Positions 8,702 to 25,010 are shown, counted from the stretch's first letter. The stretch: DNA of 60,315 bases from an uncultured Candidatus Saccharibacteria bacterium (GCA_964419525.1 CAYQPG010000001.1:1-60315), one strand, 5' to 3'. The notes: generated from the letters alone by a model not told the origin. A program made the numbers and translations.

Positions 8702-9490
8702 ATGAAATCAAGTTCCATGAAATTAATAGGAATCTTAAAAAGGAAGAGGAAGGCGGTCAGCATCCTCATTCTTACCGCATCGCTCGCCTTGAGCGCTTAT
8801 TTGATATTCGCTCCGGCCAAGAAGAACGTGCATCAAAACGCCCTGGCTCAAATAGCCACTTCCAGTGAGAGCCAAGGAACGGATCCCAGTCTGACCTTCC
8901 AGCCAAGCCAGCAAGAAAACTTGACGCTGAACTTCGCCAACCAGACGTTCAATAACGCCGTTAACAACGACTTGTACCAGAAAAACGGGAGCGCGAGCAT
9001 AATACCGCCCAACCAATCGGACATACAGAACACGATATCCCAGATCATAGACCAGGAATACGCCACGCCGGTCCTTAAAAGCTCCGACGTGACGGTCGGC
9101 ACCGACGATTCCAAGAACGCGCAGAGGATCTACGTATTATACGTGAACCAGGTGATGTCCAGTCTCCCGACATTAACATCCGACACCTCCTCAGCCCAAA
9201 CACAAGAATCGCTTGAGTCGCTGTTCCTGAGCTCGGCCAAGAATCTCGATACGGCCGCTCAGCTTCTGGAGGCCATAAAAGTTCCGCCCTCTTGGGTCCA
9301 AATACATAAAAATTTGCTGTCTCTCCTGATACACCAAAGGAACATCTTCGAATCCCTTTCCAAGGCCGGGAGTGATCCGTTGCGTTTCATGATAGCTCTC
9401 TATCAGACCTCACCGACCGAATTTGACAGCGCTTTTCAAGAGATAAAGAACGAGATAAATCAAAAAATAACCAATGAAGGCCTTATATAA
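8702..9490 (+). CDS. Membrane-anchored hypothetical protein; first gene of the T4SS-like operon
   Basis: N-terminal anchor AVSILILTASLALSAYLIFAP followed by a Gln/Ser/Asn-rich ectodomain. TATAAT at 8652-8657 lies upstream. Its 3' end overlaps the next ORF. Confidence 0.55.
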   Translation: MKSSSMKLIGILKRKRKAVSILILTASLALSAYLIFAPAKKNVHQNALAQIATSSESQGTDPSLTFQPSQQENLTLNFANQTFNNAVNNDLYQKNGSASIIPPNQSDIQNTISQIIDQEYATPVLKSSDVTVGTDDSKNAQRIYVLYVNQVMSSLPTLTSDTSSAQTQESLESLFLSSAKNLDTAAQLLEAIKVPPSWVQIHKNLLSLLIHQRNIFESLSKAGSDPLRFMIALYQTSPTEFDSAFQEIKNEINQKITNEGLI

Positions 9491-11420
9491 AATAGCGACA
9501 ATTTCAGCGGCGGTTTCGATGCTTGCTTCGTCAATCCTCTTTCCCGGCGGAGCCTTGATTAATACCGCTTCCGCCGACAACGGCCCTTGCGACGGCTGGG
9601 TGCTCCAATGGTCGGATGGTTCAGCTGTAAACTCGTCGGATTTCATGCTCCCTCCGGTAAAACTGTCGGTCTCACCCGGCGATCCTGCTTACAGCACATC
9701 GACGCCGCCTGGAACAGCTACAACCAATCCGGATTACAATGCTTCGACCATGGGCTTCGTGCTCGCCTCGTCTTCGCCGCAATACGGCAAAAATAATTCG
9801 CTCCAGTGGACTTGCTCTAACTACAGCAGCCCGAGCTCCGGCCTCACTTCAAGCCAGCAGCCGCAGGGAACGGAGGCTTGCATAGCCGCCGCTCAAATCG
9901 CCGCCAAGTACGGCGCTTACACCGCCCTGAACGCCAATTTCAGCACGCTCACGGAAAACATCAAGAACGCGGTTGTGCAGAAGGTCATCGACAATCTCAA
10001 AAACCAGTTCAGCAACGTCCACATAAACATTAGTAATCTCCTGGGAACGTCGACTTTGGGTTCCGACCTCGCGGGTCTCATAGGCAACAACCCGACATTT
10101 ACCGACGTGCAAAACCTGTTCACGAGCTCCGGACTTCAGGATGCCTTCACAAAAACATTCGGCGATCCGATGAAGAAGCAGGTACAGGGCCAAGTGGACG
10201 CCATAACGAAGGAGGCCTCGCAGCAGCTCGCCGAAATAGGAATTAATGTCCTCGGGAGTGCCGCTACCCAGATCAAGGACATCACGAACCTCGGAGGCAG
10301 CTTTGCCGGCATCCAATCCGTCCCCGTGAACGACGCCGGCACCCAAGCCCAACTGAAGGAAGTTCAAAAGATCCAGGAAAAGGCGATCCAGGAACAAAAG
10401 ACGCAGGAAGTGATTGCTCAGACGAGATCGCAATGCGACCTCCTCCTGAAGAGCACGGTGGAAACCATAAAAAGATCGCTCCTTTACGAGTTCACTTCGG
10501 AAACAGTGAACTGGATACAAGGCGGCGGGATCCAATTTTCTAACGGCAAAATCATCGTTAAGGCGCCTCAATACTTCTCACAGCCTTTGAAATCCTTGGC
10601 GGACGCCGGACTCACGGCCGTCGATCGGCTGATTTCCCAGGTCGCCCCGCAGCTTTGCCAGCCGTTCCGACTGGCCGTAACTTTCGACATCCCGACCGTC
10701 AGCAAGGAATCCAACCCCTACTACCAACAAGTAAGCTGCACCTTGAACCAAGTTGTCGGCAACATACAGAATTTTTACGAGAACTTCAGGAGCGGCAGCT
10801 GGCTGGGATACCAGGAGATGTGGATGCCGCAGAACAACTACTACGGCGCTTCACTCCAGGTTCAAGGCATGGCGCAAGCGGCTTCCGTCGGCGCCCAGTC
10901 CGCGCTCCAGAACGAGATGAACCAGGGTAACGGCTATAAGAATAAATATCAGTGCAATCAGTGGGAGGAATATACCCAGGTCCCGACCAATCTGGCGGCT
11001 CTTTACTCCATATCCGGCGTACCATTGGGCAAGGACATCCAGATTGTGAATGGGGTTTATTATCAGGGCCAGCCGGTAGACTCCGCGAACGGCATACCTT
11101 CCGACGCCCAAACGACGGTCACTAACTCCGCCTACATATCAGGCAGCCGCCTTTTTACGGACACAAACAACACGATGTTTTACGAATGTAGCGGCGAACC
11201 GGAGATCGTTCAGCCTTCCAACATAGCCGCCGGCCTGGCCCAGCAGTCGACGCAGGTCGACGTTCAGTCGCTCATCAACGCCCAGGACCTGACCGACATC
11301 GGCGACATCATCCAGAGGGCCATTATTAATAAGCTGACCAAAGTGGGCATCGGCGGGCTGCAGGGAGTTCTCCAGAAACTACCGGGACTTCAAAACAGGT
11401 TGCAGATATTAAATCCTTGA
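9474..11420 (+). CDS. Large secreted hypothetical protein (648 aa)
   Basis: Signal peptide (ATISAAVSMLASSILFPGGALINTASA), Gln/Asn/Ser-rich with scattered Cys. Translationally coupled on both sides by overlaps at 9474/9490 and 11417/11420. Confidence 0.6.
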   Translation: MKALYKIATISAAVSMLASSILFPGGALINTASADNGPCDGWVLQWSDGSAVNSSDFMLPPVKLSVSPGDPAYSTSTPPGTATTNPDYNASTMGFVLASSSPQYGKNNSLQWTCSNYSSPSSGLTSSQQPQGTEACIAAAQIAAKYGAYTALNANFSTLTENIKNAVVQKVIDNLKNQFSNVHINISNLLGTSTLGSDLAGLIGNNPTFTDVQNLFTSSGLQDAFTKTFGDPMKKQVQGQVDAITKEASQQLAEIGINVLGSAATQIKDITNLGGSFAGIQSVPVNDAGTQAQLKEVQKIQEKAIQEQKTQEVIAQTRSQCDLLLKSTVETIKRSLLYEFTSETVNWIQGGGIQFSNGKIIVKAPQYFSQPLKSLADAGLTAVDRLISQVAPQLCQPFRLAVTFDIPTVSKESNPYYQQVSCTLNQVVGNIQNFYENFRSGSWLGYQEMWMPQNNYYGASLQVQGMAQAASVGAQSALQNEMNQGNGYKNKYQCNQWEEYTQVPTNLAALYSISGVPLGKDIQIVNGVYYQGQPVDSANGIPSDAQTTVTNSAYISGSRLFTDTNNTMFYECSGEPEIVQPSNIAAGLAQQSTQVDVQSLINAQDLTDIGDIIQRAIINKLTKVGIGGLQGVLQKLPGLQNRLQILNP

Positions 11421-13660
11421 CAATGATGTCTTTCTTCAAAAATAAAAAACGCAAAAAATTACTGCCGATTGTTATTTTGGCCGTGATATTTTTGCAGTTT
11501 ACGGCGCCTGGCATAGCCACAGCTCAAACGACGAACAGTCAGCCAAGCTGGATTTCTCAGTTATTCGTCGAACTTGGGACGGCCGCAGCTGTTTTCGGAT
11601 CTTCCCCAACCACGGCTACTAAGATCGCTCTCAATGCCGTAAGTTCGTCAGCCGGCAGCGCAGCTCTCGATATAGTTTCCTTGGTCAACCAACTCTTCGG
11701 TTTCGTGGGGGGCATTGTCATCTATCTCGGATCCGTTCTCATCAGCACGGCCTTTTCTCTCAATAACTATCTCATGGGGCTGCCGATAGTCCAAAGCGGA
11801 TGGCAAATAACGAGGGATATCACTAACCTCGGTTTCGTGCTGGCCGTGATAATCATCGCTTTCGCGACCATTCTGAGGATAAATCAGTACGGCGTCCAAA
11901 AGATGCTGCCCCGCCTCATCGCGGCGGCGATCCTGGTCAATTTCAGCTTGACGATAGGCGGAGCCATACTGGATTTCACGAACGTTATAACCAAGTTCTT
12001 CATAGACAGATCCATAGGGAACGGATCATTTGCTCAATCCGTCGATATCGGGACCAATCTGACGGCCGCTTTCAATCCCCAGAAGCTTCTCGAGGTCAAC
12101 GCTCAGAACGCGCAGAGCATACCGGCGGGCATGACGACCGCCTTAGTTTCCGCGGCCAGCACTTTCTTCGTGGCCGCCTTCACTCTTCTCATGGGACTCG
12201 TCCTTCTTGCGATAGCCCTCATGCTTCTCACGAGATTTGTCTGGTTAGCGTTTCTTTTGGCCGTGGCGCCCATGCCGTGGCTTTTCGGCGTCATACCCAT
12301 AGCCGGATTGTCCAGTATGTCTAAAAAGTGGTGGGACAAGTTCATGCACTGGGCGTTCGTCGCCCCCATTTTATCGTTCTTCCTTTATCTGACTCTCGCC
12401 ACGGCGGCGAAGGTCGGGAGCATAGCCCAGAGCATCATCAGCCAGAACGCGAGCGCCACCAACAATCCGACGTTGATATCCGGCTTCATACTTCAGACCG
12501 TCAACATGCTGATATTGGTCGGCTTCCTGGTCGGGGGATTGATAGCCGCGAACGGCATGGGCATCATCGGCGCCGGCGCCGTCTATGGATTAGCGAAAAG
12601 TGCCGGGAACAAAGCCAAGGGATTCGCCAAAAACAAAACGCTGGGCGTGGGCAAGAGACTGGCGACGGCCGGATCTAAGGGCGATAAAGAGGGTAAATCC
12701 GTATTTGAGAGATTATCAGAAGGCCGTTTAGGGAAAGCTCCTTTGTTGGGCGGCGCCTTAAGAGGCCTGGCCGGGGCATCACTTAGCGCCAAAGAAAAAT
12801 CGCAGGGCGACATAGACAATTCTTACAAGAACAACAAGAAATTCAGCAAGGATACGCTGGCCAACAAGTACAACGGCCAAAAGTTAATAAACGAGAGGGA
12901 CCTCGGTGGACTTTTGGCCCTGGCCGAGAAAGGCGGATGGAGCAAATTGGATGATGCAACGAAGAGCAGGGCCGTCTCCGCCATAAAGAGGACCGGCTCG
13001 GCCGCCAAATTTGCCGCTTACGATCCGTCAATAGCCATAGCCGCCGGCATGCCGGCTGAAAAAGCGGTCAAGTTGGTCGAGGACGTATCTAAATTGGATA
13101 AAGACACGGTTAAGCAAGCGGCCCAGCACATGAGGGTCCAGCAGGACAGGGACATAGGCAACAAGGGAACGATGGAACAGAGGCAGGCCCACGCCGAAGG
13201 ATTGAAATTGGCCTTCGTCACCAAGAACAGAAGCGAATCGCAGGTCAATTCTGTTTTCGGCGACATAGAACAGGAAATGAACACTTTAGACAAAAACATT
13301 AAGGACTACAAAGACGCCAAAGACCTCGGCAAGACAGATGAAATGGAAAGATTGAAGACCGAAAGGAAGAATATAGAACAGCGCATAAGCTTCGCCGAAG
13401 ACGAACTTGTAAACGGCGGCGACATAGAACAGGAAGACGAAGTAAGAGCCTTGGATCAGGAGATAGTCAAGGCCCAGGGAGAGGAAAGAATTAAAAAGAT
13501 AGCGGAGAGAACAAATAAGATTAGCAGCATAAAAGACAAGAGAAGAGACGTGCTGCAAAGAAGAAAATCACTCATGAAGCAGGCGGCTTGGCAGGGAGTG
13601 CCGGAATACAAAAATAAACACGTGAATACCGATAGTGCCGCGAATGAAGAAACAATATAA
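11417..13660 (+). CDS. Polytopic membrane protein, VirB6/TrbL-like, with a long Lys/Glu-rich C-terminal tail
   Basis: Signal sequence, then at least 7 hydrophobic helices between about aa 90 and 520. A ~230-aa charged, coiled-coil-like tail follows. The position just upstream of PrgI-like and VirB4 genes supports the call, which rests on topology and context only. Confidence 0.5.
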   Translation: MTMMSFFKNKKRKKLLPIVILAVIFLQFTAPGIATAQTTNSQPSWISQLFVELGTAAAVFGSSPTTATKIALNAVSSSAGSAALDIVSLVNQLFGFVGGIVIYLGSVLISTAFSLNNYLMGLPIVQSGWQITRDITNLGFVLAVIIIAFATILRINQYGVQKMLPRLIAAAILVNFSLTIGGAILDFTNVITKFFIDRSIGNGSFAQSVDIGTNLTAAFNPQKLLEVNAQNAQSIPAGMTTALVSAASTFFVAAFTLLMGLVLLAIALMLLTRFVWLAFLLAVAPMPWLFGVIPIAGLSSMSKKWWDKFMHWAFVAPILSFFLYLTLATAAKVGSIAQSIISQNASATNNPTLISGFILQTVNMLILVGFLVGGLIAANGMGIIGAGAVYGLAKSAGNKAKGFAKNKTLGVGKRLATAGSKGDKEGKSVFERLSEGRLGKAPLLGGALRGLAGASLSAKEKSQGDIDNSYKNNKKFSKDTLANKYNGQKLINERDLGGLLALAEKGGWSKLDDATKSRAVSAIKRTGSAAKFAAYDPSIAIAAGMPAEKAVKLVEDVSKLDKDTVKQAAQHMRVQQDRDIGNKGTMEQRQAHAEGLKLAFVTKNRSESQVNSVFGDIEQEMNTLDKNIKDYKDAKDLGKTDEMERLKTERKNIEQRISFAEDELVNGGDIEQEDEVRALDQEIVKAQGEERIKKIAERTNKISSIKDKRRDVLQRRKSLMKQAAWQGVPEYKNKHVNTDSAANEETI

Positions 13661-13666
13661 GCCTAA

Positions 13667-14569
13667 ATGACATTCGAAGAAGTACCACAACAAATAAAAA
13701 ACAGCTTGTTTTCCGAACGAGTGGATGAAATACTCGAAGAAATAAGGAACGAGGCGGTCATAACCAGCCCCACTCTTATTGCCGGCGCCTTTTATGACCT
13801 CATAACCAAAGAAACTCCCGCCCACTACTTCGTGCAAGACCTCGCTGAAAGGGGTGCGGGAGAGAAAATGGCCAAATCGATAGCCAAGGCCATAAAGGAA
13901 AGGATATTGGAATCGGAAAGATATTCTCTTTTCAGATGGGGAGTGGACATAAGCGAGATAAAAGTCGAGGATGCTCCAAATTTGGAGACCTTGGGATTAA
14001 GGGAAGATCTGCGGCCCGAGGAGACGAAGAAAACTCTCCATCCGGAATCCATCGAGAAAAAGGAGCAGGAGATCGAAGAAATACCAATAATAAGGAGTAC
14101 CTTCCAGCCGCCGGCGGAAAAGAAAGAAACCGGGTCCATGCCTTTCGTTCTTCAGGAGAGACCCAAGGAAGAGAGCGCCCTCTCCGGGCAGGCGACCGGC
14201 ATAATACCGTCTCTTTCCTTCGGATTCTTCAAATCAAAAAAGGTCAAACCGATCATCTCTCCCCAGCCCATAAAAGCCCGCATCGAAACTCCCGAAGCTG
14301 AAACGCCTAAAGGCAAAAAGGTAGTCCATTACATGGAGAGCAGATCCACCGCATCGCCCTTCGAAGCTGGCGGAGAGTTTTTGAGAACCGAAGAGATCGC
14401 GACACCCGCGCCTAAAGAAGAGGTGCCGAAAAAGCCCGCGGATAATCCATTCCTGAACGCCATACTCAAAAAACCGCCGGAGAAGAGCAGTGGTAAAAAG
14501 ACGGAAGCAAAAATCGTTTCATCCGGACCGAAGATTGAGGGCAACACGATAGACCTAAGAAATAATTAG
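13667..14569 (+). CDS. Hypothetical soluble protein with a disordered Pro/Glu/Lys-rich C-half
   Basis: No TM segment or signal peptide. Sits inside the operon. Confidence 0.5.
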   Translation: MTFEEVPQQIKNSLFSERVDEILEEIRNEAVITSPTLIAGAFYDLITKETPAHYFVQDLAERGAGEKMAKSIAKAIKERILESERYSLFRWGVDISEIKVEDAPNLETLGLREDLRPEETKKTLHPESIEKKEQEIEEIPIIRSTFQPPAEKKETGSMPFVLQERPKEESALSGQATGIIPSLSFGFFKSKKVKPIISPQPIKARIETPEAETPKGKKVVHYMESRSTASPFEAGGEFLRTEEIATPAPKEEVPKKPADNPFLNAILKKPPEKSSGKKTEAKIVSSGPKIEGNTIDLRNN

Positions 14570-14573
14570 CCAA

Positions 14574-15065
14574 ATGGAATTCCAAGTTCCGCAATTCATA
14601 GAACAAAAGGCAAAAATAGTGGGGCCCTTAACGCTGGTCCAGTTCTTTTACGTCGCCGGGGCGGGAGCCGTGAGTTTCATAGCTTACAACATTCTGAGCC
14701 CGTTCCTTTGGGTGATAATAACTCTCATCGTCCTCGGGATCGCCGGCACTTTAGCCTTCGTCAAAATCAACGGGCAGGAAATGATAAAGGTCTTGGGTTC
14801 GATCACGAAATTCTATTTTGCCCCGCGGATGTATACCTGGCAGAGGCAAACGGCCAAGACGACCTTGGAACTCTCCGATGAGGACATTGAAAGCCTCAGA
14901 AAGAATATGAGCATCGGCAGCAAGCTTAAGTCGCTGGCCCTCAAGGTCTCGGTGGGCCGAATACTCGGCAAAGACCAGCCCAAAGAGGGCGATAGGGAGG
15001 GACATTACGAAGTGGTGACTTATCTGACCGGGGAAAGGAAGGTCGCCAAAAGAGTAGATTATTGA
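14574..15065 (+). CDS. PrgI-family (VirB3-like) T4SS membrane protein
   Basis: N-terminus FQVPQFIEQKAKIVGPLTLVQFFYVAGAG followed by two TM helices. This matches the PrgI pattern (VP..i....ki.g.LT.rQ) and lies just upstream of VirB4. Confidence 0.6.
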   Translation: MEFQVPQFIEQKAKIVGPLTLVQFFYVAGAGAVSFIAYNILSPFLWVIITLIVLGIAGTLAFVKINGQEMIKVLGSITKFYFAPRMYTWQRQTAKTTLELSDEDIESLRKNMSIGSKLKSLALKVSVGRILGKDQPKEGDREGHYEVVTYLTGERKVAKRVDY

Positions 15066-15089
15066 AGCTTAAACGCTTAAAATACAATC

Positions 15090-15737
15090 ATGGCGCAAAA
15101 TCAAACACCGACGCAGACATTGGTCGAGGTAAAAAAGATAGACAACGGGGTCGTCTATCTTAAAAACGGCGGCTTGGTCCAGATAATAATGGTCGGCGGC
15201 ACCAATTTCGACCTCAAGTCCGAGGACGAACAAAACGCCATAATCGCCACTTTCCAGAAATTTCTGAACTCGCTCGACTTCAGAACCCAGTTCTTCATAC
15301 ATTCCCGCAAGGTCAATATCCAAAAATATTTGGACAACATGCGGGAAAGGAAGAAAAACGAGGAAAATGAACTTTTGAAGATACAAATAGACGAGTACAT
15401 AAACTTCATAAAATCGTTTGTCGAACAGAACGCCATCATAAGCAAAAATTTCTTCGTGGTCGTGCCTTACGATTCGACGCCCGACGCCTCATCGGCCGCG
15501 ACGGGACTCATGGGTTTTTTCAAAAAAACGCCGACTGCGGCACAAAAAGCCGAGACCGGCGCCTTGGACCGGGAAAACCTCGAACAATTAAGGAACCGGG
15601 CCGAGGGGGTGATAAGTGGTCTCGAACAAATGGGATTGAAGGCCGTCCCAATGGAAGATGATGAGCTCACCGAATTGTTTTATAATCTATACAATCCTCA
15701 ACTCGTCGAGAAAAAGGGATTGAACTTGGCACAATAG
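15090..15737 (+). CDS. VirB4/TraC-type ATPase, N-terminal domain fragment (ends at an in-frame TAG)
   Basis: LVEVKKIDNGVVYLKNGGLVQIIMVGGTNFDLKSEDEQNAIIATFQKFLNSLDFRTQFFIHS resembles the VirB4 N-terminal domain. It is in the same reading frame as 15744-17489. Confidence 0.55.
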   Translation: MAQNQTPTQTLVEVKKIDNGVVYLKNGGLVQIIMVGGTNFDLKSEDEQNAIIATFQKFLNSLDFRTQFFIHSRKVNIQKYLDNMRERKKNEENELLKIQIDEYINFIKSFVEQNAIISKNFFVVVPYDSTPDASSAATGLMGFFKKTPTAAQKAETGALDRENLEQLRNRAEGVISGLEQMGLKAVPMEDDELTELFYNLYNPQLVEKKGLNLAQ

Positions 15738-15743
15738 TTTCAC

Positions 15744-17489
15744 ATGAAGATCCAAATCCCACAAGCTTACAAACCGGGCGAAGAAGATTTGTTCAACATC
15801 ATAGCTCCCTCCGGCGTGGAAGTTAATTCCAATTACCTCAAAATAGGCGATTATTACGCCAAAACGTTCTTCATATTCACTTATCCGCGCTACATAACCA
15901 CCGGTTGGTTCTCTCCCATTATAAACATGCCGACCATGATGGACATCTCCATATTCGTCCATCCCATGGACACATCTTTGGCCCTAAGAAACCTAAGAAA
16001 GAAGGTTGCTCAAATAGAGGCCGAGATAACGGAAAAGGAAGAAAAGGGCGTTGTCCGCGACCCAGTCCTCGAAACGGCCTACCAGGACATAGAAAGCTTG
16101 CGCGACTCGCTCCAGCAGGCCAGAGAGAAGCTTTTCGAGGTCGGCGTTTACATAACCATCTACGCCTCCAGCTTGGAAGAACTGGCCAAGATCGAGAGCG
16201 ATCTCACGAACACCCTGGAAAGCAGAATGGTTTATTTGAAGCCGGCGCTTTTCAGGCAAGACGAAGGGCTGAGTTCCGTCCTGCCGATAGCCGAGGACAA
16301 GCTGGCGGTAAGGACGCCTTTGAACAGCGGCCCGGCGTCGTCCATATTTCCGTTCACTTCCGCCGACCTGACGTCGGAGAACGGCATCCTGTACGGCATA
16401 AACATGCAGAACAACACCCTCATAATATTCGACAGGTTTTCTTTGGAAAACGCCAACATGGTGGTCTTCGCCAAATCCGGCTCCGGCAAATCGTACGCCA
16501 CCAAACTCCAAATACTGCGATCACTCATGGTGGGAACGGACGTCATAGTTATAGACCCGGAGAACGAATACCAGAATCTGGCCGACTCGATAGGCGGCAG
16601 CTACTTCAAAATATCGCTGACGTCCGAAAACCACATCAATCCCTTCGACATACCCGTGATACCCGAGGGGGAGGAGCCGGCCGACGTCTTTAAATCGCAC
16701 ATATTGAACTTGACGGGACTCGTGAAACTGATGCTCGGCGAGGTCAAACCGGAAGAGGAAGCTCTTCTCGACAGAGCCATAACTGAAACGTACACGTCGA
16801 GGGACATAACGGCCGAAAATTTCGGCACACTTAAAGAATTGAATCCGCCGCTCCTGGAGGACCTTCAAACCATACTCCAAAACACCGAAGGGGGGGGCGG
16901 CATAGCCCAAAGACTGGACAGGTTCACTCACGGTTCGTACTCGGGCTTCACGAACGCCCCCACGAACGTCGACATAAAGAACAGGCTGATAGTCTTTTCC
17001 ATAAGGGACTTGGAGGAAGAATTGAGACCCATCGCGATGTACATAGTTCTTAACTTCGTCTGGAACCTCATAAGATCGGAACTTAAATCGAGATTACTCG
17101 TGATAGACGAAGCTTGGTGGATGATGAAATACAAGGACAGCGCCTCATTCTTGTTCGGACTAGTGAAGCGAGCCAGGAAGTATTATTTGGGCGTCACGAC
17201 CATAACCCAGGATGTGGACGATTTCCTGGGATCCGAGTACGGCCGGCCTATTGTCACCAACTCGGCAATGCAATTGCTTTTAAAGCAGTCGCCGTCAAGC
17301 ATAGAACCACTGACCAAAGCTTTCAACCTGACGGACGGGGAGTCGGCGCTGCTCCTCGAGGCCGGCGTCGGCGAAGGACTGTTGTTTGCCGGACTGAAAC
17401 ACGCCGCCATAAAGGTCATAGCGTCATATACTGAGGATCAGATAGTCACGACCAACCCGGAGCAAATATTGGAAGCCAAGGGATTATAA
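15744..17489 (+). CDS. virB4: VirB4/TrbE/CagE-type T4SS ATPase, C-terminal ATPase domain
   Basis: Walker A SGSGKS (GSGKS = 16479-16493), Walker B LLVIDEAWWMM (DE = 17106-17111), and TTITQDVDDF. The two ORFs total 215 + 581 aa, about the length of a full VirB4. Confidence 0.85.
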   Translation: MKIQIPQAYKPGEEDLFNIIAPSGVEVNSNYLKIGDYYAKTFFIFTYPRYITTGWFSPIINMPTMMDISIFVHPMDTSLALRNLRKKVAQIEAEITEKEEKGVVRDPVLETAYQDIESLRDSLQQAREKLFEVGVYITIYASSLEELAKIESDLTNTLESRMVYLKPALFRQDEGLSSVLPIAEDKLAVRTPLNSGPASSIFPFTSADLTSENGILYGINMQNNTLIIFDRFSLENANMVVFAKSGSGKSYATKLQILRSLMVGTDVIVIDPENEYQNLADSIGGSYFKISLTSENHINPFDIPVIPEGEEPADVFKSHILNLTGLVKLMLGEVKPEEEALLDRAITETYTSRDITAENFGTLKELNPPLLEDLQTILQNTEGGGGIAQRLDRFTHGSYSGFTNAPTNVDIKNRLIVFSIRDLEEELRPIAMYIVLNFVWNLIRSELKSRLLVIDEAWWMMKYKDSASFLFGLVKRARKYYLGVTTITQDVDDFLGSEYGRPIVTNSAMQLLLKQSPSSIEPLTKAFNLTDGESALLLEAGVGEGLLFAGLKHAAIKVIASYTEDQIVTTNPEQILEAKGL

Positions 17490-17493
17490 AAAC

Positions 17494-17943
17494 ATGGAAG
17501 AGGACAACGAATTGGAACAATTAAACGAGGGGATCGACAAGGCCGGCGAAGATATAGCGTCCGATGCTCCCCGGATAAGCTGGGGCGAGATACTCTTAAT
17601 AACTCCCTTGTTGATGTTCGTTGATTTCGTAGAGCTCATGGGGACCGTCATGGAGGCTATCCCGGTGGCTGGCCAAGTGGTTTTATTGCCGGTTTCGTTG
17701 ATCTTGTCGGGCGTCAGTCTTTTGGTGACTTTTTTCGTACAATTTTATCTTTTCATAAAAAAGGTCAAAAACTTCGCGTTCTTGATAGGAAGTATCATCG
17801 ACTCGGTGCCTGTAATAAGCGCCTTACCCATAAGGACCGTAAGCTGGCTCATAACGGTCTTTATGACCAACAACAAAAAGGTTTCAAAGCTCATGAACAA
17901 CTCGGCTCTTGGTAAGGCGGCGAGCATAGCCACTAAAATATGA
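17494..17943 (+). CDS. Small polytopic membrane protein (3-4 TM), hypothetical
   Basis: Acidic N-terminus followed by hydrophobic helices. Overlaps the next ORF by 4 nt. Confidence 0.55.
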   Translation: MEEDNELEQLNEGIDKAGEDIASDAPRISWGEILLITPLLMFVDFVELMGTVMEAIPVAGQVVLLPVSLILSGVSLLVTFFVQFYLFIKKVKNFAFLIGSIIDSVPVISALPIRTVSWLITVFMTNNKKVSKLMNNSALGKAASIATKI

Positions 17944-18623
17944 AAAAAACGATACCCATATTACTGGCACTCATATTCTTGTCCGCGGCGCTATTAGTAA
18001 AAGCTCAAACGGCGAGCGGAACAAATACTTATCAAGCCGTCATAACTTGGGACGCCAACGACTATTATCCCTCGGACTTTAAAGGTAAACCTATGCCGAC
18101 CAACGGAACCAACGTTTCTCTTTCCGTGATATTAACCCAAAATCAGAGACTGGTGGACGTATCAAGCATGCCGATACTGTGGTATGTCGACGGCAACTTT
18201 CTGGGCGGTGGCGTAGGTTCTTACCAGACGAGCTTCCGCGTCACTAAGACCGCCGGCGACTACCACACTGTAATGGTGGAAATAAACACGCCCGACGGAC
18301 AGACGATATCGACTTCGGAAAGCATACCGGTATCCAATTACCTGGCGATCATAGACGCTCCTTATCCGGCTGACCAAGTTCAGAAGAACTCAACGGTCAA
18401 TCTGGAAATAATACCTTATTTTTTCAACGTTTCTTCCTTGAACAATCTCCTTTTCTCGTGGAACGTAAACAGCCTCCAGAAAACGAACCAATCGCTGGAT
18501 AATACATTGTCGCTTCAAACCGGGTCGGTCTCGCCTCAGACGGTCAATGTGAGCGCATACATAGAGAATTCCTCCAATCAATACGAGTTCGCCAACGGCA
18601 AAATCAACCTGTATGTTCAATAA
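17940..18623 (+). CDS. Secreted hypothetical protein, beta-rich
   Basis: Signal peptide MKKTIPILLALIFLSAALLVKAQ followed by Asn/Ser/Thr/Val-rich sequence. Confidence 0.55.
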   Translation: MKKTIPILLALIFLSAALLVKAQTASGTNTYQAVITWDANDYYPSDFKGKPMPTNGTNVSLSVILTQNQRLVDVSSMPILWYVDGNFLGGGVGSYQTSFRVTKTAGDYHTVMVEINTPDGQTISTSESIPVSNYLAIIDAPYPADQVQKNSTVNLEIIPYFFNVSSLNNLLFSWNVNSLQKTNQSLDNTLSLQTGSVSPQTVNVSAYIENSSNQYEFANGKINLYVQ

Positions 18624-18626
18624 AAC

Positions 18627-19517
18627 ATGATAAAAAAACTTCTGAAAAAAATGGGCAATGCTTCAAGACAACACAATGGCAAGCTGGCGGTGTTGGTCGT
18701 TCTGATGGCGGCTTTGTATCTGCCCCAAATAACTCACGCCAGTTTGGATTTAAAACTTTACAATTCACCGCCATGCCTTCTGACGGACCAGTACGGCAAC
18801 TGCCCCGACCAAACGACTTTGAGCGGGTACATTCAAACGCTTTACAGGTTTGGATTGGGGATTGGCGGAATATTGGCCGTCGGGATGATAATTTTCGGAG
18901 CCATAAACATATCAATCTCGGGCAGCGTCGACAAAGAGAAAGAAGGAAAAAGCTACATAACATCCGCTCTCCTGGGTTTATTGCTGCTTTTCGGAGCTTA
19001 CGTGCTCCTAAGGGAGATAAATCCGAATCTGGTGCAATTATCTCCGCCCTCAGCGCCCCAAATTTCGTTTCCCACATCGACGATGACCAATGCCATGTGG
19101 ACCGACAATAACCAGAAACTGGCCGAATTGGAGAATGCCGGCGTCGAAGTGTCGAGCAGCGGCAACTGCTTCGACATAAGCAATCCGACGTGTACCAGTC
19201 TGGCCGGCATGCCCGACCCGGCGATCCAGTTCATAATAAATTTGGAAAAAAACTCTGGGTGTCCGGCCAACTCTCCGCAGGGGATAGTGGTGACCGGCGG
19301 AACGGAGGTTGGCCACCAAACCCACGGTTACGGACTGCCGGTCTTCGACTTAAGGGATAGTTCCTGTTTGGTGAGCTACATACAAAACAACCTCAGCAAC
19401 CTTAAAAGCTCAGTGGAAAGGATTTGTTCAATAGCCGCCAACAGTCAGATAACCTTCGGATGCGGCAATTACGTCGAACAAGAAGACCACATACATATAG
19501 CGCTCAAGACGCAGTAA
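18627..19517 (+). CDS. VirB2/TrbC-like pilin module fused to a Cys-rich C-terminal domain (possible LAS/M15-type metallopeptidase)
   Basis: Signal sequence plus two TM helices flanking a short charged loop (GLGIGGILAVGMIIFGAINISISGSVDKEKEGKSYITSALLGLLLLFGAYVLLREINPNLV). The C-domain carries H233-x7-D241 (19323-19349) and H288-x-H290 (19488-19496). Confidence 0.5.
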   Translation: MIKKLLKKMGNASRQHNGKLAVLVVLMAALYLPQITHASLDLKLYNSPPCLLTDQYGNCPDQTTLSGYIQTLYRFGLGIGGILAVGMIIFGAINISISGSVDKEKEGKSYITSALLGLLLLFGAYVLLREINPNLVQLSPPSAPQISFPTSTMTNAMWTDNNQKLAELENAGVEVSSSGNCFDISNPTCTSLAGMPDPAIQFIINLEKNSGCPANSPQGIVVTGGTEVGHQTHGYGLPVFDLRDSSCLVSYIQNNLSNLKSSVERICSIAANSQITFGCGNYVEQEDHIHIALKTQ

Positions 19518-19519
19518 CA

Positions 19520-20701
19520 ATGGGACAAAAATATAAAATATTAATATATTTGGGCGTCGTTATTCTGGTAGGACTCATATTGTACGTTATTTGGACCGCC
19601 TTCGTCCCTAAACCGACCGTACCGGTCACGCCGACGCCCGCGCCGTCCTCGGGATCATTGCCAGTAACCAACGGCACTTCTTCCGTAACCACCGGAACAG
19701 CGAGTCAAGCCGCGTCATCGACCATAACCGTGCCTATCCTATCTAAAATATCGAGCCATGACGTCTTTACTTACTGGGTGGATCCCCAAACCGGCGACGT
19801 AAGATACATGGATAATACCGGCGAAGTCTGGCTCGTGAACCAAGGAGGTAAGGAAACGCTCGACTCCGGCCAGACACTGACCGCCTTGAATTCCGCCGAC
19901 GTATACCAGAACAAACAGGAGGTATTGGTTTCCTTCGGCGACCCGGCGGCGCCGCAGTGGGCCATCTACGATGTTCTGGACCAAACGTGGCATTCCCTGC
20001 CGCAGAACATAGTGAACGTGACGTGGGGCGCCGATCCCAACCAATTGATAGGCCTGGTCAAAAACGTGAACTCGTATTCGCTGTCCTACGTCGATCTGAC
20101 CAAGACGCCGGCGACAGAGAAGACAATATTGAACAATTTCTACATGAATGGCGTTAACTTCAAATTCTTGGCGCCGTCGACGCTCATCATAACCGAAAAA
20201 CCGTCGTCTTATTACAGCGCCAGCGCCTGGGAATTAAATTTGAAAAACTTGGCCATGAACATGGTATTCCAGCCGACAGCCGGACTTTACGCCAGAACAT
20301 CGTCGGATGGCTCGCTTATATTTTCTTACAGCGGCAACAACATCACCATCCTCAATTCAAAGACGCTCGCGCCGTACAACCTTCCGTTCCAATCGTTGCC
20401 CGGCAAGTGCGATTCATCGGCCAACGCATCTTCTTCCAGTATCTACTGTTTCTCGCCCGAGAACGTAACGCCTTCCGTCGTCATGCCCGACGATTACCTG
20501 GAAAAAGCATTTTACTCGATAGATATACTGTATAACTACAGCTTCAACACCCAAAACACCAAGACGGTCATAATAAGCGGAACGCCCGGCATACCCATGA
20601 TAGACGCCGAAAACGTAAGCTCTTACGGCGGGAGTGTTTATTTCGTGAACAGATATGACAACTCGCTTTACAAACTCACCCTTCCTTCGGTAAATAATTA
20701 A
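19520..20701 (+). CDS. Membrane-anchored hypothetical protein with a beta-rich ectodomain
   Basis: ATG 19520 lies 3 nt after the preceding stop; the ORF-track start at 19424 overlaps the previous gene. TM helix ILIYLGVVILVGLILYVIWTAF, a Pro/Thr/Ser linker, and a ~330-aa domain. Confidence 0.55.
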   Translation: MGQKYKILIYLGVVILVGLILYVIWTAFVPKPTVPVTPTPAPSSGSLPVTNGTSSVTTGTASQAASSTITVPILSKISSHDVFTYWVDPQTGDVRYMDNTGEVWLVNQGGKETLDSGQTLTALNSADVYQNKQEVLVSFGDPAAPQWAIYDVLDQTWHSLPQNIVNVTWGADPNQLIGLVKNVNSYSLSYVDLTKTPATEKTILNNFYMNGVNFKFLAPSTLIITEKPSSYYSASAWELNLKNLAMNMVFQPTAGLYARTSSDGSLIFSYSGNNITILNSKTLAPYNLPFQSLPGKCDSSANASSSSIYCFSPENVTPSVVMPDDYLEKAFYSIDILYNYSFNTQNTKTVIISGTPGIPMIDAENVSSYGGSVYFVNRYDNSLYKLTLPSVNN

Positions 20702-21126
20702 GACTCTATGAGAGATATCACTATGTGTCTGTCCTTGCCGGCTCCGACGCTTTCCGTCTTGAGGTCCGGATTGGAGGCTATTTCCATGTGCACCAATCTT
20801 CTTTCATAGGAGTTCATCGGCGGCAAAGAAACTTCCGATTTGGAGATCTTTGCTTTCTTAGCGCCGGCTTTGGCCAATTCCACTATCAATCTCTCCCTTT
20901 CACGGCGATAATAATTCACGTCCACCACAAAGGGCGGCTTTTCAGCCTGCTTCAGTGCTAAATTCATCAGATGCTCAACGGGTTGCAGAATGCTTGGTAT
21001 TTGAGATCGAAAAAACTCGTCGTCGACGACGATTGATATTTTTCTTACGTTTTCATCGACGCTCACCTCCACCCTTTCGAAACCCATTAAATTGAAGAAT
21101 TTTTTTGCGTATTCTGGAATATCCAT
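20698..21126 (-). CDS. jag: Jag/KhpB-like KH-R3H RNA-binding protein
   Basis: R3H motif region SYERRLVHMEIASNPDLKTESVGAGKDRHIVI. Lies downstream of yidC, as is usual. Confidence 0.8.
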   Translation of the reverse strand: MDIPEYAKKFFNLMGFERVEVSVDENVRKISIVVDDEFFRSQIPSILQPVEHLMNLALKQAEKPPFVVDVNYYRRERERLIVELAKAGAKKAKISKSEVSLPPMNSYERRLVHMEIASNPDLKTESVGAGKDRHIVISLIES

Positions 21127-21138
21127 CTCTTTTGGTTT

Positions 21139-21819
21139 CTAATTATCGCTCTTCTCAAGCTTTTTTTCAATAGCCGGCAATTTCTTGTTGATGTAAATTT
21201 GCTGCGCGAACGAGAAAGCCGTGAAGACCAACCAATAGAGACCGATGGCCGACGGTAAATTGCCCAATATCAGCACGGTTATCAACGGGCCGATGAATGT
21301 CATTGTTCTCTGCATCTGGCCGGCGGCGCCGGATATCTTTTGATTACCCATCATCGATTTCGTTTGGAAATATTGAAGAATGGCGGCGATGATGACCACT
21401 ATCCAATTTTTGGCGGCTAAATCAAATAATCCAAGGAATGTCGTGGAGGCGAAATTAAAGTTTTTTATCTGACTGGTAAAAAGATTGAAAAGAGCTATAA
21501 AAATCGGCAATTGTATTATAAGGAGCAGTATGCTGGAAAAGGGATTTATTTTATGTTCCTTATAAAGTTCCATCAGGGCCTCGGCTTGCTTGCCTTTGTC
21601 ATTCTTGTGTTTTTCTTGAATATCCTTTATGTGCGGCTGCAATCGCTGCATTATCGTCTGATCCTTGGCTCCTTTGTAGAAGAACGGCAACAATACGATT
21701 CTCACGAGCACCGTGAGTATTATGACCGCGACGCCAAGGTCGTGAAAAGCCATAGTGTTGTAGATAAAAACCAAAACGCTCAAAAGCGGCAATGAAATGT
21801 ACGTATTTATGAAGCTCAT
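21139..21819 (-). CDS. yidC: Membrane protein insertase YidC (short form)
   Basis: Multi-TM protein with VLVRIVLLPF, the charged loop MQRLQPHIKDIQEKHKNDKGKQ, and the rnpA-yidC-jag context. Confidence 0.85.
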   Translation of the reverse strand: MSFINTYISLPLLSVLVFIYNTMAFHDLGVAVIILTVLVRIVLLPFFYKGAKDQTIMQRLQPHIKDIQEKHKNDKGKQAEALMELYKEHKINPFSSILLLIIQLPIFIALFNLFTSQIKNFNFASTTFLGLFDLAAKNWIVVIIAAILQYFQTKSMMGNQKISGAAGQMQRTMTFIGPLITVLILGNLPSAIGLYWLVFTAFSFAQQIYINKKLPAIEKKLEKSDN

Positions 21820-22064
21820 AGTTTTTTTATTCCTTCTATTTCCGACTTTATCTCCTCTTTTAACTCCTTAAAGCTTAAATCAAGCACGCCTCGCTTAGCA
21901 ATAACAAAAAAAGAGGCGCTGCCGCGCGAGAACGGTTCGAGCGCCGATTTTATCCTTCTCTTTATTAAATTCCTGTCGACGGCCCTTTCAGCGACTTTCT
22001 TGCTGACCACTATAACAGATTTCTTTCCACCCGAGGCTTGGTTCTTTTTAATGGAAATGTTCAC
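21816..22064 (-). CDS. rnpA: RNase P protein component (short, GTG start)
   Basis: KKVAERAVDRNLIKRRIKSALEP motif. Immediately downstream of rpmH. The codon at 22064-22062 is GTG. Confidence 0.7.
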   Translation of the reverse strand: MNISIKKNQASGGKKSVIVVSKKVAERAVDRNLIKRRIKSALEPFSRGSASFFVIAKRGVLDLSFKELKEEIKSEIEGIKKL

Positions 22065-22065
22065 A

Positions 22066-22194
22066 TTAAGCCGACAGTTTTTTCCTACCCTTTCTTCTCC
22101 TGCTTTTAAGGATGTTGGAGTTTTTTCTGGCTCTTTTCAGGAAGCCATGGACCCTGCCCCTTTTCCTCTTTTTTGGTTGGTATGTTTGCGACAT
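22066..22194 (-). CDS. rpmH: 50S ribosomal protein L34
   Basis: My own translation of the reverse strand gives [42 protein letters not shown] followed by a stop. It is too short for the ORF track. Confidence 0.85.
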
Positions 22195-22354
22195 TTGAAT
22201 GATTATATTATAAAAATAACATTATTTAAAGCGCCTCACCGAAGATATCAACAACTAATCCACAATTAAAGCACAGAAGGTACCCAAACGCAATGTTGCA
22301 AGTTTCCAAAATACATCTATCATAAGCCTTAAGGTCTGTTTTTATTTAAATTTT

Positions 22355-23719
22355 ATGGATGAAAAGGAGATTTGGAAAAATGTGTTGGGCGACATAGAAC
22401 TTCAGATATCGAAACCAAACTTTTTGACGTGGCTGAAGAACAGCCAACTCGTGAGTCTTGATAAAAAGGAGGGTGTTGGATTGGTCGGACTGCCCAACAA
22501 CTTCGCCAAGGAGTGGGTTAAGAGCCGATACCACAAAATAATACTTACATCCATAAGGAATCTGGATGGATCGATAAAAAATTTGGATTACGTCGTCGTT
22601 AATCAAAATAAAAACAACGCGATCGGCGTCAACATTAAGAAGCTTGACAACGATAATCCGCAATCATCACTGCTGGACGTCAAAATCGATCCCAAGACCA
22701 ACCTCAATCCTAAGTACACGTTCAAAAATTTCATAGTCGGCTCGTCCAATGAATTAGCCACGGCCGCTTCACAAGCCATAATAAAAAATATCGGCAAAAA
22801 ATATAATCCGCTTTTCATATACGGCGGCGTCGGTCTCGGTAAAACCCATCTTCTTCAGGCTACTGGCAACGAAATAATCGAGCACTACAAGAATTCGGTC
22901 AAAGTTCTTTACATCTCTTCCGAAAAATTTATAAATGACGTGGTATGGGCCGTCAGAAACAAGAGAACGGACGACATGAAGAAAAAATACAGGGATGTCG
23001 ACGTGCTCATAATAGACGACATTCAATTCATCGGCGGCAAAGCGGCCACTGAACAGGAATTCTTTTACACGTTCAATACGTTATATGAAAACAATAAGCA
23101 GATTATCATATCCTCCGACAGGCCGCCAACGGCCATACCGACGCTCGAAGAAAGATTAAGATCAAGATTCGAAGGCGGAATGATAGCCGACATAACGTAT
23201 CCGGACTATGAAATGAGGCTTGCCATATTAAAAACCAGGGTCCAAAGCCAGTCAATATTCATAGATGACGGCATATTGGACCAAATAGCGTCCAAGGTGC
23301 AAAGAAACATAAGGGAGCTGGAGGGCGTGTTCAATAAGGTCGTCTTCTACGAGCAGTACAAAAATCAAAAAATAGACAGCAAGAAACTGGACGAAATAAT
23401 AAGCGAGGCTATACAAATAACGCCCAAAAACATAACAGCCGGAGATATAATAAGGATCGTTGCCGAGTTTTTTGAAATACCAATGACCGAAATGACCAAT
23501 AAGAGCAGGAAGCAGGAGATAGTGGAGCCGAGACAAATAGCGATGTTTTTAATGAGGGATATATTAAAACTGTCATATCCACATATAGGCGAAAAATTAG
23601 GCAAAAGAGATCACACGACCGCGATCCACGCTTGTGAAAAAATATCATCGGAAATGGCGCAAAATCCGGCCTTAAACCAAAAAATATTATTGATAAAAGA
23701 GAGGATGTATAAGATGTAG
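22355..23719 (+). CDS. dnaA: Chromosomal replication initiator DnaA
   Basis: Walker A GGVGLGKTHLL, LIIDDIQF, and the C-terminal HTH region RDHTTAIHACEKI. Confidence 0.95.
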   Translation: MDEKEIWKNVLGDIELQISKPNFLTWLKNSQLVSLDKKEGVGLVGLPNNFAKEWVKSRYHKIILTSIRNLDGSIKNLDYVVVNQNKNNAIGVNIKKLDNDNPQSSLLDVKIDPKTNLNPKYTFKNFIVGSSNELATAASQAIIKNIGKKYNPLFIYGGVGLGKTHLLQATGNEIIEHYKNSVKVLYISSEKFINDVVWAVRNKRTDDMKKKYRDVDVLIIDDIQFIGGKAATEQEFFYTFNTLYENNKQIIISSDRPPTAIPTLEERLRSRFEGGMIADITYPDYEMRLAILKTRVQSQSIFIDDGILDQIASKVQRNIRELEGVFNKVVFYEQYKNQKIDSKKLDEIISEAIQITPKNITAGDIIRIVAEFFEIPMTEMTNKSRKQEIVEPRQIAMFLMRDILKLSYPHIGEKLGKRDHTTAIHACEKISSEMAQNPALNQKILLIKERMYKM

Positions 23720-23903
23720 AAAAGATCGGTCCGATTGTGGATATCTGAGGATAAAAAACACAATTAAGAGCAAACATCAAAAAACAATTCACACCTAAGA
23801 AATTATTATCCTCAAGTTATCAGAATACGGACACGTCAAAAAACCAATCAAAAACGACTTCAATAACTTTATACACATACACACAACATCTACTACGACT
23901 ACT
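23720..23903. other. Candidate oriC (dnaA-dnaN spacer with DnaA-box-like 9-mers)
   Basis: Four 9-mers match TTATCCACA/TGTGGATAA at 8 of 9 positions: TGTGGATAT 23736-23744, TGAGGATAA 23746-23754, TTATCCTCA 23806-23814 and TTATACACA 23869-23877. One more, TAATCCACA, lies upstream of dnaA at 22256-22264. The spacer is A/T-rich. Confidence 0.5.
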
Positions 23904-25010
23904 ATGAAATTAATTATATTAAGAACAAATCTAATAGAAGCATTAAATACTGTGGAAAGGGCTATTGGTGAAAATATGAACCTGCCCATACTCAGAAATT
24001 TTTTAATTAAGGCTTCCGACGGAAAAATAATTTTCATTTCCACTAATCTTGAGATAGCCGTGCAACGCGAGACATCCGGTAAGGTAATCGACGAGGGGGA
24101 AGTAGTCGTTCCTTTTTTAATATTCAATTCCGTCATCAGAAACCTGAACTCCGAAAGGATAACTATAGAAAAAGATGGGAATAAAATACTCGTCAGTTCC
24201 GATAATTATGAGGGATTCATACAAGATCAGGATCCTAAAGAATTTCCGATAATACCCCAAATAACCAACCTTAATAAAGGCATAAAAATAAAGACCGACG
24301 TTTTGAAGGACGCGCTCAAAAACACCTCAGTTTCGGTCCAATATTCAACCATAAGACCGGAGATAAGTGGTGTTTACATGAATCAATCGGATGATGTGCT
24401 TTTATTCGTGGGAACCGACAGTTTTAGACTGTCCGAGATTAAAATATCCAATGGTCGCTTCTCGTCCGATCTCGATGATTTTTCTTTGATAATTCCCATA
24501 AAGACAGTCCAGGAAATTGTCAGAATGTTCGGCGGTTCCGAGGATGTATCAATGTTTATAGATCCAAATCAAATACTCATTGAAGGAGATAAAGAAAGAA
24601 TAATTTCAAGGATAATAGACGGTACATTTCCGGATTATAAAGCTGTCATACCAAAATCTTTTAAAACCGAAGTTGTTTTGAATAAAGAGGAATTTCTGAA
24701 CGCCCTTAAATTGGTCAGTGCTTTTTCTGGAAGAGCCAACGACGTCAACTTGAAGTCCGGCGAGAGTGGTAAATTTTTGGAAATTTTTTCTTCCGATAAT
24801 GCGACCGGCGAAGGTAAATATAAAATACCAGCCAAGATAAAAGGGGATGATTTTTCGGTGATTTTTAATTGGAGATATCTAATCGACGGGCTCAAGGTAT
24901 ACGGGAGCGACGAAGTAATTTTAAGCGTGAATTCTTCGGATAAGCCGGCCCAAATAAGGAGTCAGAGCGATCAAGGCGTCAATTATATAGTGATGCCGAT
25001 AAGGGGTTAG
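23904..25010 (+). CDS. dnaN: DNA polymerase III beta sliding clamp
   Basis: 368 aa, follows dnaA directly, with a typical three-domain clamp pattern (MKLIILRTNLIEAL...PAQI...YIVMPIR). Confidence 0.9.
   Translation: MKLIILRTNLIEALNTVERAIGENMNLPILRNFLIKASDGKIIFISTNLEIAVQRETSGKVIDEGEVVVPFLIFNSVIRNLNSERITIEKDGNKILVSSDNYEGFIQDQDPKEFPIIPQITNLNKGIKIKTDVLKDALKNTSVSVQYSTIRPEISGVYMNQSDDVLLFVGTDSFRLSEIKISNGRFSSDLDDFSLIIPIKTVQEIVRMFGGSEDVSMFIDPNQILIEGDKERIISRIIDGTFPDYKAVIPKSFKTEVVLNKEEFLNALKLVSAFSGRANDVNLKSGESGKFLEIFSSDNATGEGKYKIPAKIKGDDFSVIFNWRYLIDGLKVYGSDEVILSVNSSDKPAQIRSQSDQGVNYIVMPIRG

Follow-up and report, generated by a model that had tools for sequence, protein, structure and literature searches.

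In this study, we analyzed a 60,315-nucleotide (nt) stretch of DNA, hereafter the window, from the metagenome-assembled genome of an uncultured Candidatus Saccharibacteria bacterium (GCA_964419525.1, CAYQPG010000001.1:1-60315). It contains two neighboring open reading frames (ORFs) related to VirB4, the ATPase of type IV secretion systems (T4SSs), that look like a single gene interrupted by one TAG codon. The first ORF, of 215 amino acids (aa), is called here the N piece, and the second, of 581 aa, the C piece. Both lie in the same frame (15744 - 15090 = 654 = 218 x 3), and nothing more than one stop and two sense codons stands between them. The sequence at the junction reads ATG (15090) ... 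CAA TAG (15735-15737) TTT CAC ATG (15744) ... up to a stop ending at 17489, which confirms the coordinates, the arithmetic, and the single in-frame stop of the original prediction made on this DNA. Translation of the two ORFs revealed no further stops or frameshifts in either, and the adjoining genes of the operon are also intact. The features of the locus are as follows.

15090..15737, + strand: N-piece gene, 215 aa, TrsD-like, encoding the first part of the VirB4 N-terminal domain, as assigned from profile matches
15735..15737, + strand: TAG, assigned as the normal stop of the N-piece gene from the sequence and from genome-wide TAG use
15738..15743, + strand: 6-nt intergenic spacer TTT CAC, typical of a tightly packed operon
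15744..17489, + strand: C-piece gene, 581 aa, encoding the second half of the VirB4 N-terminal domain and the complete ATPase domain, as assigned from NCBIfam, Pfam, and PDB 4AG5
16470..16493, + strand: Walker A motif AKSGSGKS, from the translation, invariant in alignment A2
17094..17117, + strand: Walker B motif LLVIDEAW, from the translation, with D-E-A-W invariant in alignment A2

The profile matches identify the 581-aa product as a predicted VirB4-family ATPase. It scored 383.7 bits against NCBIfam NF045971, the CD1110-family VirB4 profile (cut-off 325, E 1.7e-114), over positions 189-728 of 752, and it also covers positions 240-724 of 792 in VirB4_CagE and 293-887 of 894 in VirB4_plasma. 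In addition, it matches Pfam P-loop_TraG (E 5.7e-26), its residues 212-569 align to residues 8-388 of 4AG5_A, the solved VirB4 C-terminal domain (E 3.9e-45), and its residues 238-544 align to residues 446-741 of TrwK. The Walker A and Walker B motifs of P-loop NTPases are intact and conserved in alignment A2. What this chain does not carry is a complete N-terminal domain, as it starts at profile position 189 and positions ~5-118 are found on the separate 215-aa protein.

The N piece, whose gene directly precedes virB4 at a distance of 6 nt, is a stand-alone homolog of the VirB4 N-terminus of ~200 aa. Its matches to the same profiles are confined to their N-terminal parts (CD1110 5-118 of 752, VirB4_CagE 18-185 of 792, and VirB4_plasma 100-234 of 894). 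The N piece also matches positions 27-142 of 201 in NCBIfam NF041427, the TrsD/TraD profile (E 1.8e-9). Two Pfam families, PF26593 and PF27097, are precomputed for homologs of the N piece, and neither gave a match in the Pfam scan of the window proteins. When the N piece was modeled alone from a 100-sequence alignment, the mean predicted local distance difference test score (pLDDT) was 87.9 and the predicted template modeling score (pTM) was 0.77. The 14 best PDB matches of this model were all TrwK/VirB4 chains of the R388 machine, with a probability of 1.00, and the template modeling score normalized to the query was 0.5-0.58 in 13 of them. The relation of both ORFs to VirB4, already proposed in the original prediction, is thus borne out by the Pfam and NCBIfam matches. 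As the profile ranges of the two pieces are complementary and do not overlap, their products are colinear parts of one VirB4, a division of the protein and not a duplication.

It was previously suggested that the break falls between the N-terminal and ATPase domains, with the downstream ATG exactly at the domain boundary. This is not the case, as 4AG5 aligns only from residue 212 of the C piece, so that ~210 residues preceding the ATPase domain remain on the second polypeptide. The break is found at roughly one quarter of the VirB4 length, inside the canonical N-terminal domain. In alignment A2, the junction falls in an indel-rich stretch between the conserved blocks ...ELFYNLYNP..EK and IIAP...YPR. 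We also modeled the window sequence with the TAG read as Q, using a 15-row alignment, and used this read-through model for the disorder at the junction alone; residues 211-232 have a pLDDT < 50 and are predicted to be disordered. On this evidence, the split lies in a variable linker amid the VirB4 N-terminal domain.

The split form was found to be general among relatives. All 120 best homologs of the ATPase piece are 578-604 aa long, and the stand-alone homologs of the N piece form 920 clusters of ~210-220 aa with 55-83% identity. A word-free scan of 1.84 billion cluster representatives (50% identity level) retrieved 2,066 relatives of the N piece; the best 150 comprise 149 short proteins and one of 797 aa. 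Both parts could be placed in 79 genome loci, of which 74 have the split form and five an undivided gene. The four nearest relatives, with ATPase pieces 89-92% identical to that of the window, are all split with differing junctions, and together with the window they form a five-member clade with 100% support in the Shimodaira-Hasegawa-like approximate likelihood ratio test (SH-aLRT) in a midpoint-rooted tree. Against these nearest relatives, the rate of nonsynonymous substitution (dN) is 0.05-0.2 while that of synonymous substitution (dS) is saturated. The dN/dS ratio (omega), taken from a subset of pairs only, as synonymous sites are saturated in most, is 0.06-0.14 for the N-piece gene and 0.015-0.07 for the ATPase gene, so that both genes are under strong purifying selection. 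These comparisons show the two-gene layout to be ancestral to a very large clade, kept by purifying selection, and common to hundreds of lineages of related ultra-small bacteria. A genuine and tolerated two-polypeptide VirB4, the option favored in the original prediction, is therefore the correct one, in agreement with the 120 of 120 homologs, the 920 clusters, and the 74 of 79 loci.

The division is general, but the frame, stop codon, and spacing of the junction all differ between orthologous loci. With the window set aside, the 73 remaining split loci show the frame relation 0/1/2 in 19/23/31 cases (chi-square p = 0.22; one-sided test for an excess of in-frame junctions, p = 0.93), and a single stop separates the two parts in only 10 of the 19 in-frame relatives. 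Over all 74 split loci, the N-piece gene ends with TAA in 51, TGA in 13, and TAG in 10. The spacing ranges from -17 nt up to an inserted ORF: there are seven ATGA overlaps, three one-base overlaps, 41 spacers of 0-30 nt, 14 spacers of 31-130 nt, and six gaps of > 130 nt, five of which hold an extra open frame of 117-141 aa. The variation extends to the close relatives. One of them, with an ATPase piece 92% identical to that of the window (L022), has an ATGA overlap; the second copy found on contig C16 of the same assembly has a TAA followed by 7 nt and is in another frame; and L003 and L004 have spacers of 108-117 nt with five or six stops. The loci with an inserted open frame are L023, L024, L026, L070, and L071, where 400-720 nt separate the VirB4 parts.

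A similar geometry is also found elsewhere in the operon of the window, which is co-directional (8850-20430) with junctions of -17 to +24 nt, except for one 94-nt overlap at a doubtful TTG start. Three other adjacent pairs without a recognized relationship are in frame, with spacers of 3-24 nt. In one of them, 11417-13660/13667-14569, the geometry is identical (one stop, two codons, ATG, same frame), and no family was recognized for either gene in the Pfam and NCBIfam scans. The neighboring genes and in-frame pairs are the following.

14574..15065, + strand: gene for a PrgI-family (VirB3-like) membrane protein, directly upstream of the N-piece gene (Pfam PF12666 PrgI, E 2.3e-9, 38.1 bits against a cut-off of 27)
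18627..19517, + strand: gene for a T4SS pilin-domain protein, downstream (Pfam PF18895 T4SS_pilin, E 5.8e-7, 29.9 bits against a cut-off of 26.6)
11417-13660/13667-14569, 17940-18623/18627-19517, and 14574-15065/15090, + strand: other in-frame adjacent pairs of the same operon

Since frame, stop codon, and spacing all vary freely at the junction, the in-frame position of the TAG carries no meaning, and because operon pairs without a recognized relationship share the same geometry, this geometry is best seen as a chance by-product. The in-frame arrangement in the window is a coincidence of tight operon packing. The original description of a VirB4 interrupted by an in-frame TAG has to be replaced by that of an old and widespread two-gene layout. 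With PrgI upstream and the T4SS pilin downstream, the VirB4 is encoded within a T4SS gene cluster.

The use of TAG in this organism agrees with this view. In the 496-kb assembly, which consists of 50 contigs and is 81% complete, TAG ends 94 of the 446 long non-overlapping ORFs; the tally of TAG at gene ends suggested with the original prediction thus returned an ordinary stop. No stop-reading (CUA) anticodon, and so no suppressor tRNA, was found among the 31 tRNAs identified. Of 20 relatives, 19 have a gene for a protein similar to release factor 1 (RF1) that is distinct from the gene for release factor 2 (RF2); within the same genus, this holds for seven of eight genomes. To the extent that these data can show it, TAG is an ordinary stop in this organism. 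A recoding of TAG was considered and rejected on the basis of the 94 TAG stops out of 446, the lack of a suppressor tRNA, and the RF1-like genes in 19 of the 20 relatives. Release factors appear to be short in this lineage. The RF1-like matches cover positions ~107-350 of prfA in frames of ~245-255 aa in most relatives (G001-G020), and the RF2-like ORF of this assembly has 239 aa (G000:C11:290-1009, L084).

Altogether, the two ORFs are very probably two separate functional genes of an origin-proximal T4SS operon of the Patescibacteria (Paceibacteria-type), one coding for a 215-aa TrsD-like protein and the other for a 581-aa VirB4. The TrsD-like protein matches the first ~190 positions of the VirB4 profile, and the VirB4 gene encodes the remaining N-terminal domain and the whole ATPase domain, with the TAG at 15735-15737 acting as the ordinary stop of the first gene and the ATG at 15744 as the ordinary start of the second. 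Both polypeptides may be made in matched amounts by translational coupling, as suggested by the 6-nt spacer, the absence of a clear Shine-Dalgarno sequence ahead of the ATG at 15744, and the many ATGA/TAATG overlaps in relatives. They would then associate non-covalently, the small protein completing the N-terminal domain of the hexameric ATPase driving the apparatus. The VirB3/PrgI-like protein from the gene just upstream probably joins this TrsD-like and VirB4 assembly.

Several points weigh against this interpretation. The physical association of the two polypeptides and their translational coupling are inferred. Confidence in the read-through model as a whole is low (pLDDT 65.8, pTM 0.47), and the model is too weak to judge how the two halves pack. 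The label "TrsD-like" rests on remote homology, as the N piece scores 37.7 bits against a cut-off of 200 for NF041427 (36.4 bits in the genome search), and on the CONJScan/MacSyFinder T4SS trsD profile that Quinonero-Coronel et al. 2025 used. The TAG at 15735-15737 is known from the assembled sequence alone. Finally, RF1 was not found in this incomplete assembly, which yielded RF2 only; this is attributed to an assembly gap, an attribution that does not amount to proof.

The original prediction also listed stop-codon read-through, a sequencing or assembly error, and a nonsense mutation, and all three are contradicted by the comparative data. If the TAG were read through at a low but useful rate, some fused VirB4 of ~800 aa, similar to the undivided form of a few related lineages, would be made beside the two separate products. 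The shared frame and the single stop would allow it, and the undivided versions in five of the 79 related loci indicate that a fused protein is probably tolerated. However, in-frame junctions are not enriched in relatives (19 of 73, below one third), and the closest relatives either lie in a different frame or carry multiple stops within the spacer, with all three stop codons in use. The tRNA set and the common use of TAG as a stop also speak against this possibility, as does the occurrence of the same geometry in operon pairs without a recognized relationship. We consider read-through very unlikely.

An erroneous TAG in a gene that is in truth undivided is slightly less probable still. The assembled nature and incompleteness of this genome leave some room for such an error, and fused forms do exist elsewhere in the family. 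Nevertheless, all four relatives in the well-supported clade of the window are split, the fused forms belong to two distant small clades, and the C piece starts with an M-K-I-Q/K... segment that is common to the split relatives and missing from the natural fused proteins. The third possibility, an undivided VirB4 recently inactivated to a pseudogene, is suggested only superficially by one stop inside a frame otherwise of VirB4 length and is effectively refuted, as the split is found in hundreds of lineages that have diverged to the point of synonymous saturation, omega is < 0.15 for both halves, neither frameshifts nor further stops are present, the Walker A and B motifs and the neighboring genes are intact, and no close relative carries an undivided gene. 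The situation named in the original prediction as pointing to a simple pseudogene was undivided relatives combined with further lesions in this copy; we found instead split close relatives, no lesions, and omega values of 0.015-0.14.

The undivided minority is informative on how the two parts relate. In the five loci, VirB4 is encoded by a single uninterrupted gene of ~780-790 aa, truncated in two cases; L027, L029, and L039 belong to one clade and L037 and L040 to another. In alignment A2, these genes lack the stretch of ~15 residues (MKIQIPQAYKPG...) with which the split ATPase piece begins. They are nested among the split genes as two small groups, which corresponds to at least two changes of state in the midpoint-rooted tree without an outgroup. 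Secondary fusion is the likelier direction than fission, since the split form is also found in Bacillota and TrsD homologs are reported to be widespread beside virB4 in Patescibacteria. Such natural fusions, at five of the 79 loci, show that the N and C products can be expected to work as one unit. One member of an undivided clade, L031 (2324-4689), is broken elsewhere, after ~residue 99 of the N part and with an ATGA overlap, which would reflect a frameshift error or else a recent fission that arose independently.

Outside this setting, TrsD is familiar as part of Gram-positive conjugation systems of the pGO1-type subclass. In staphylococcal pGO1/pSK41, the MPF-FATA prototype, a TrsD/TraD protein of ~200 aa precedes the VirB4-family TrsE/TraE, as the N piece precedes the ATPase in the window. 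This likeness was drawn through the NCBIfam TrsD profile only, and the homology is remote (37.7 against 200 bits). The setting also differs, as the pGO1/pSK41 systems are plasmid-borne conjugation machines with a relaxase, while the Patescibacteria systems mostly lack one, according to Quinonero-Coronel et al. 2025 (Microb Genom, PMC12102498).

The same layout is found on the megaplasmid of Pontibacillus sp. ALD_SL1 (NZ_CP062975, 355436-358115, L083), where a 274-aa protein precedes a 621-aa CD1110-family VirB4. The 274-aa protein is annotated as a "hypothetical protein" and matches the N piece (tblastn E 1e-16, ~29% identity). Unlike in the window, the two genes overlap by 11 nt, and so are not in frame, and lie on a plasmid; the pair is preceded by a pilin-like gene in the same gene string and followed by a gene for a peptidoglycan hydrolase. 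The undivided counterpart is TrwK of R388 (PDB 7O41 and 8RTB), which resembles the N piece in fold and the C piece in the sequence of the ATPase region. It is a single chain of 823 aa, whereas the chain in the window is divided at roughly one quarter.

The two-gene arrangement itself is already published as TrsD + VirB4 in PMC12102498. Its authors report 2,272 TrsD homologs in Patescibacteria, of which 1,664 are found together with VirB4, and state that the TrsD homolog of Southlakia epibionticum is listed as essential. They also describe T4SS genes as essential for epibiotic growth in Saccharimonadia, Patescibacteria T4SSs as often located near dnaA, and VirB4 in the R388 machine as anchored to the inner membrane by VirB3. 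The pairs described there resemble the present locus in having a small homolog of the VirB4 N-terminus beside virB4, genes for a PrgI/VirB3-like protein and a VirB2-like pilin, and a chromosomal location near dnaA. We see no essential difference from those systems, and this locus is one more instance. In the passages considered, TrsD is called a homolog of the N-terminal portion and is not discussed as half of a split gene. Relative to that account, the present analysis adds that the two products together line up, colinear and complementary, with a whole VirB4, that their junction varies freely, and that a few lineages have an undivided gene.

From a practical perspective, a VirB4 that looks interrupted by a nonsense codon is, in Patescibacteria and some Bacillota, the usual two-gene form of this ATPase, and as a discovery it carries little weight. 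In annotation, such loci should be labeled neither as pseudogenes nor as candidates for read-through. When a Patescibacteria T4SS ATPase is modeled or purified, the small TrsD-like protein should be included, because it is the source of the first part of the VirB4 N-terminal domain.

Finally, two observations concern the surroundings of the operon and its second copy. The distance from the end of the operon to dnaA-dnaN is ~1.6 kb, and this interval holds an R3H (jag-like) gene and yidC; with R3H (jag-like), yidC, dnaA, and dnaN located directly downstream (window 20698-25010), the T4SS operon is origin-proximal. On contig C16 of the same assembly (G000; 11.8 kb, with L002 at C16:1420-6162), the whole T4SS-like operon is found again in the same gene order. 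Its nucleotide identity to the window operon is 65-72%, and at the protein level the ATPase piece is 91% and the N piece 71% identical. As the VirB4 of C16 groups with L003, from the metagenome-assembled genome WY5.bin131 (99% SH-aLRT), and not with the window copy, the contig may have been mis-binned from a co-occurring relative, in which case it would not represent a second operon.

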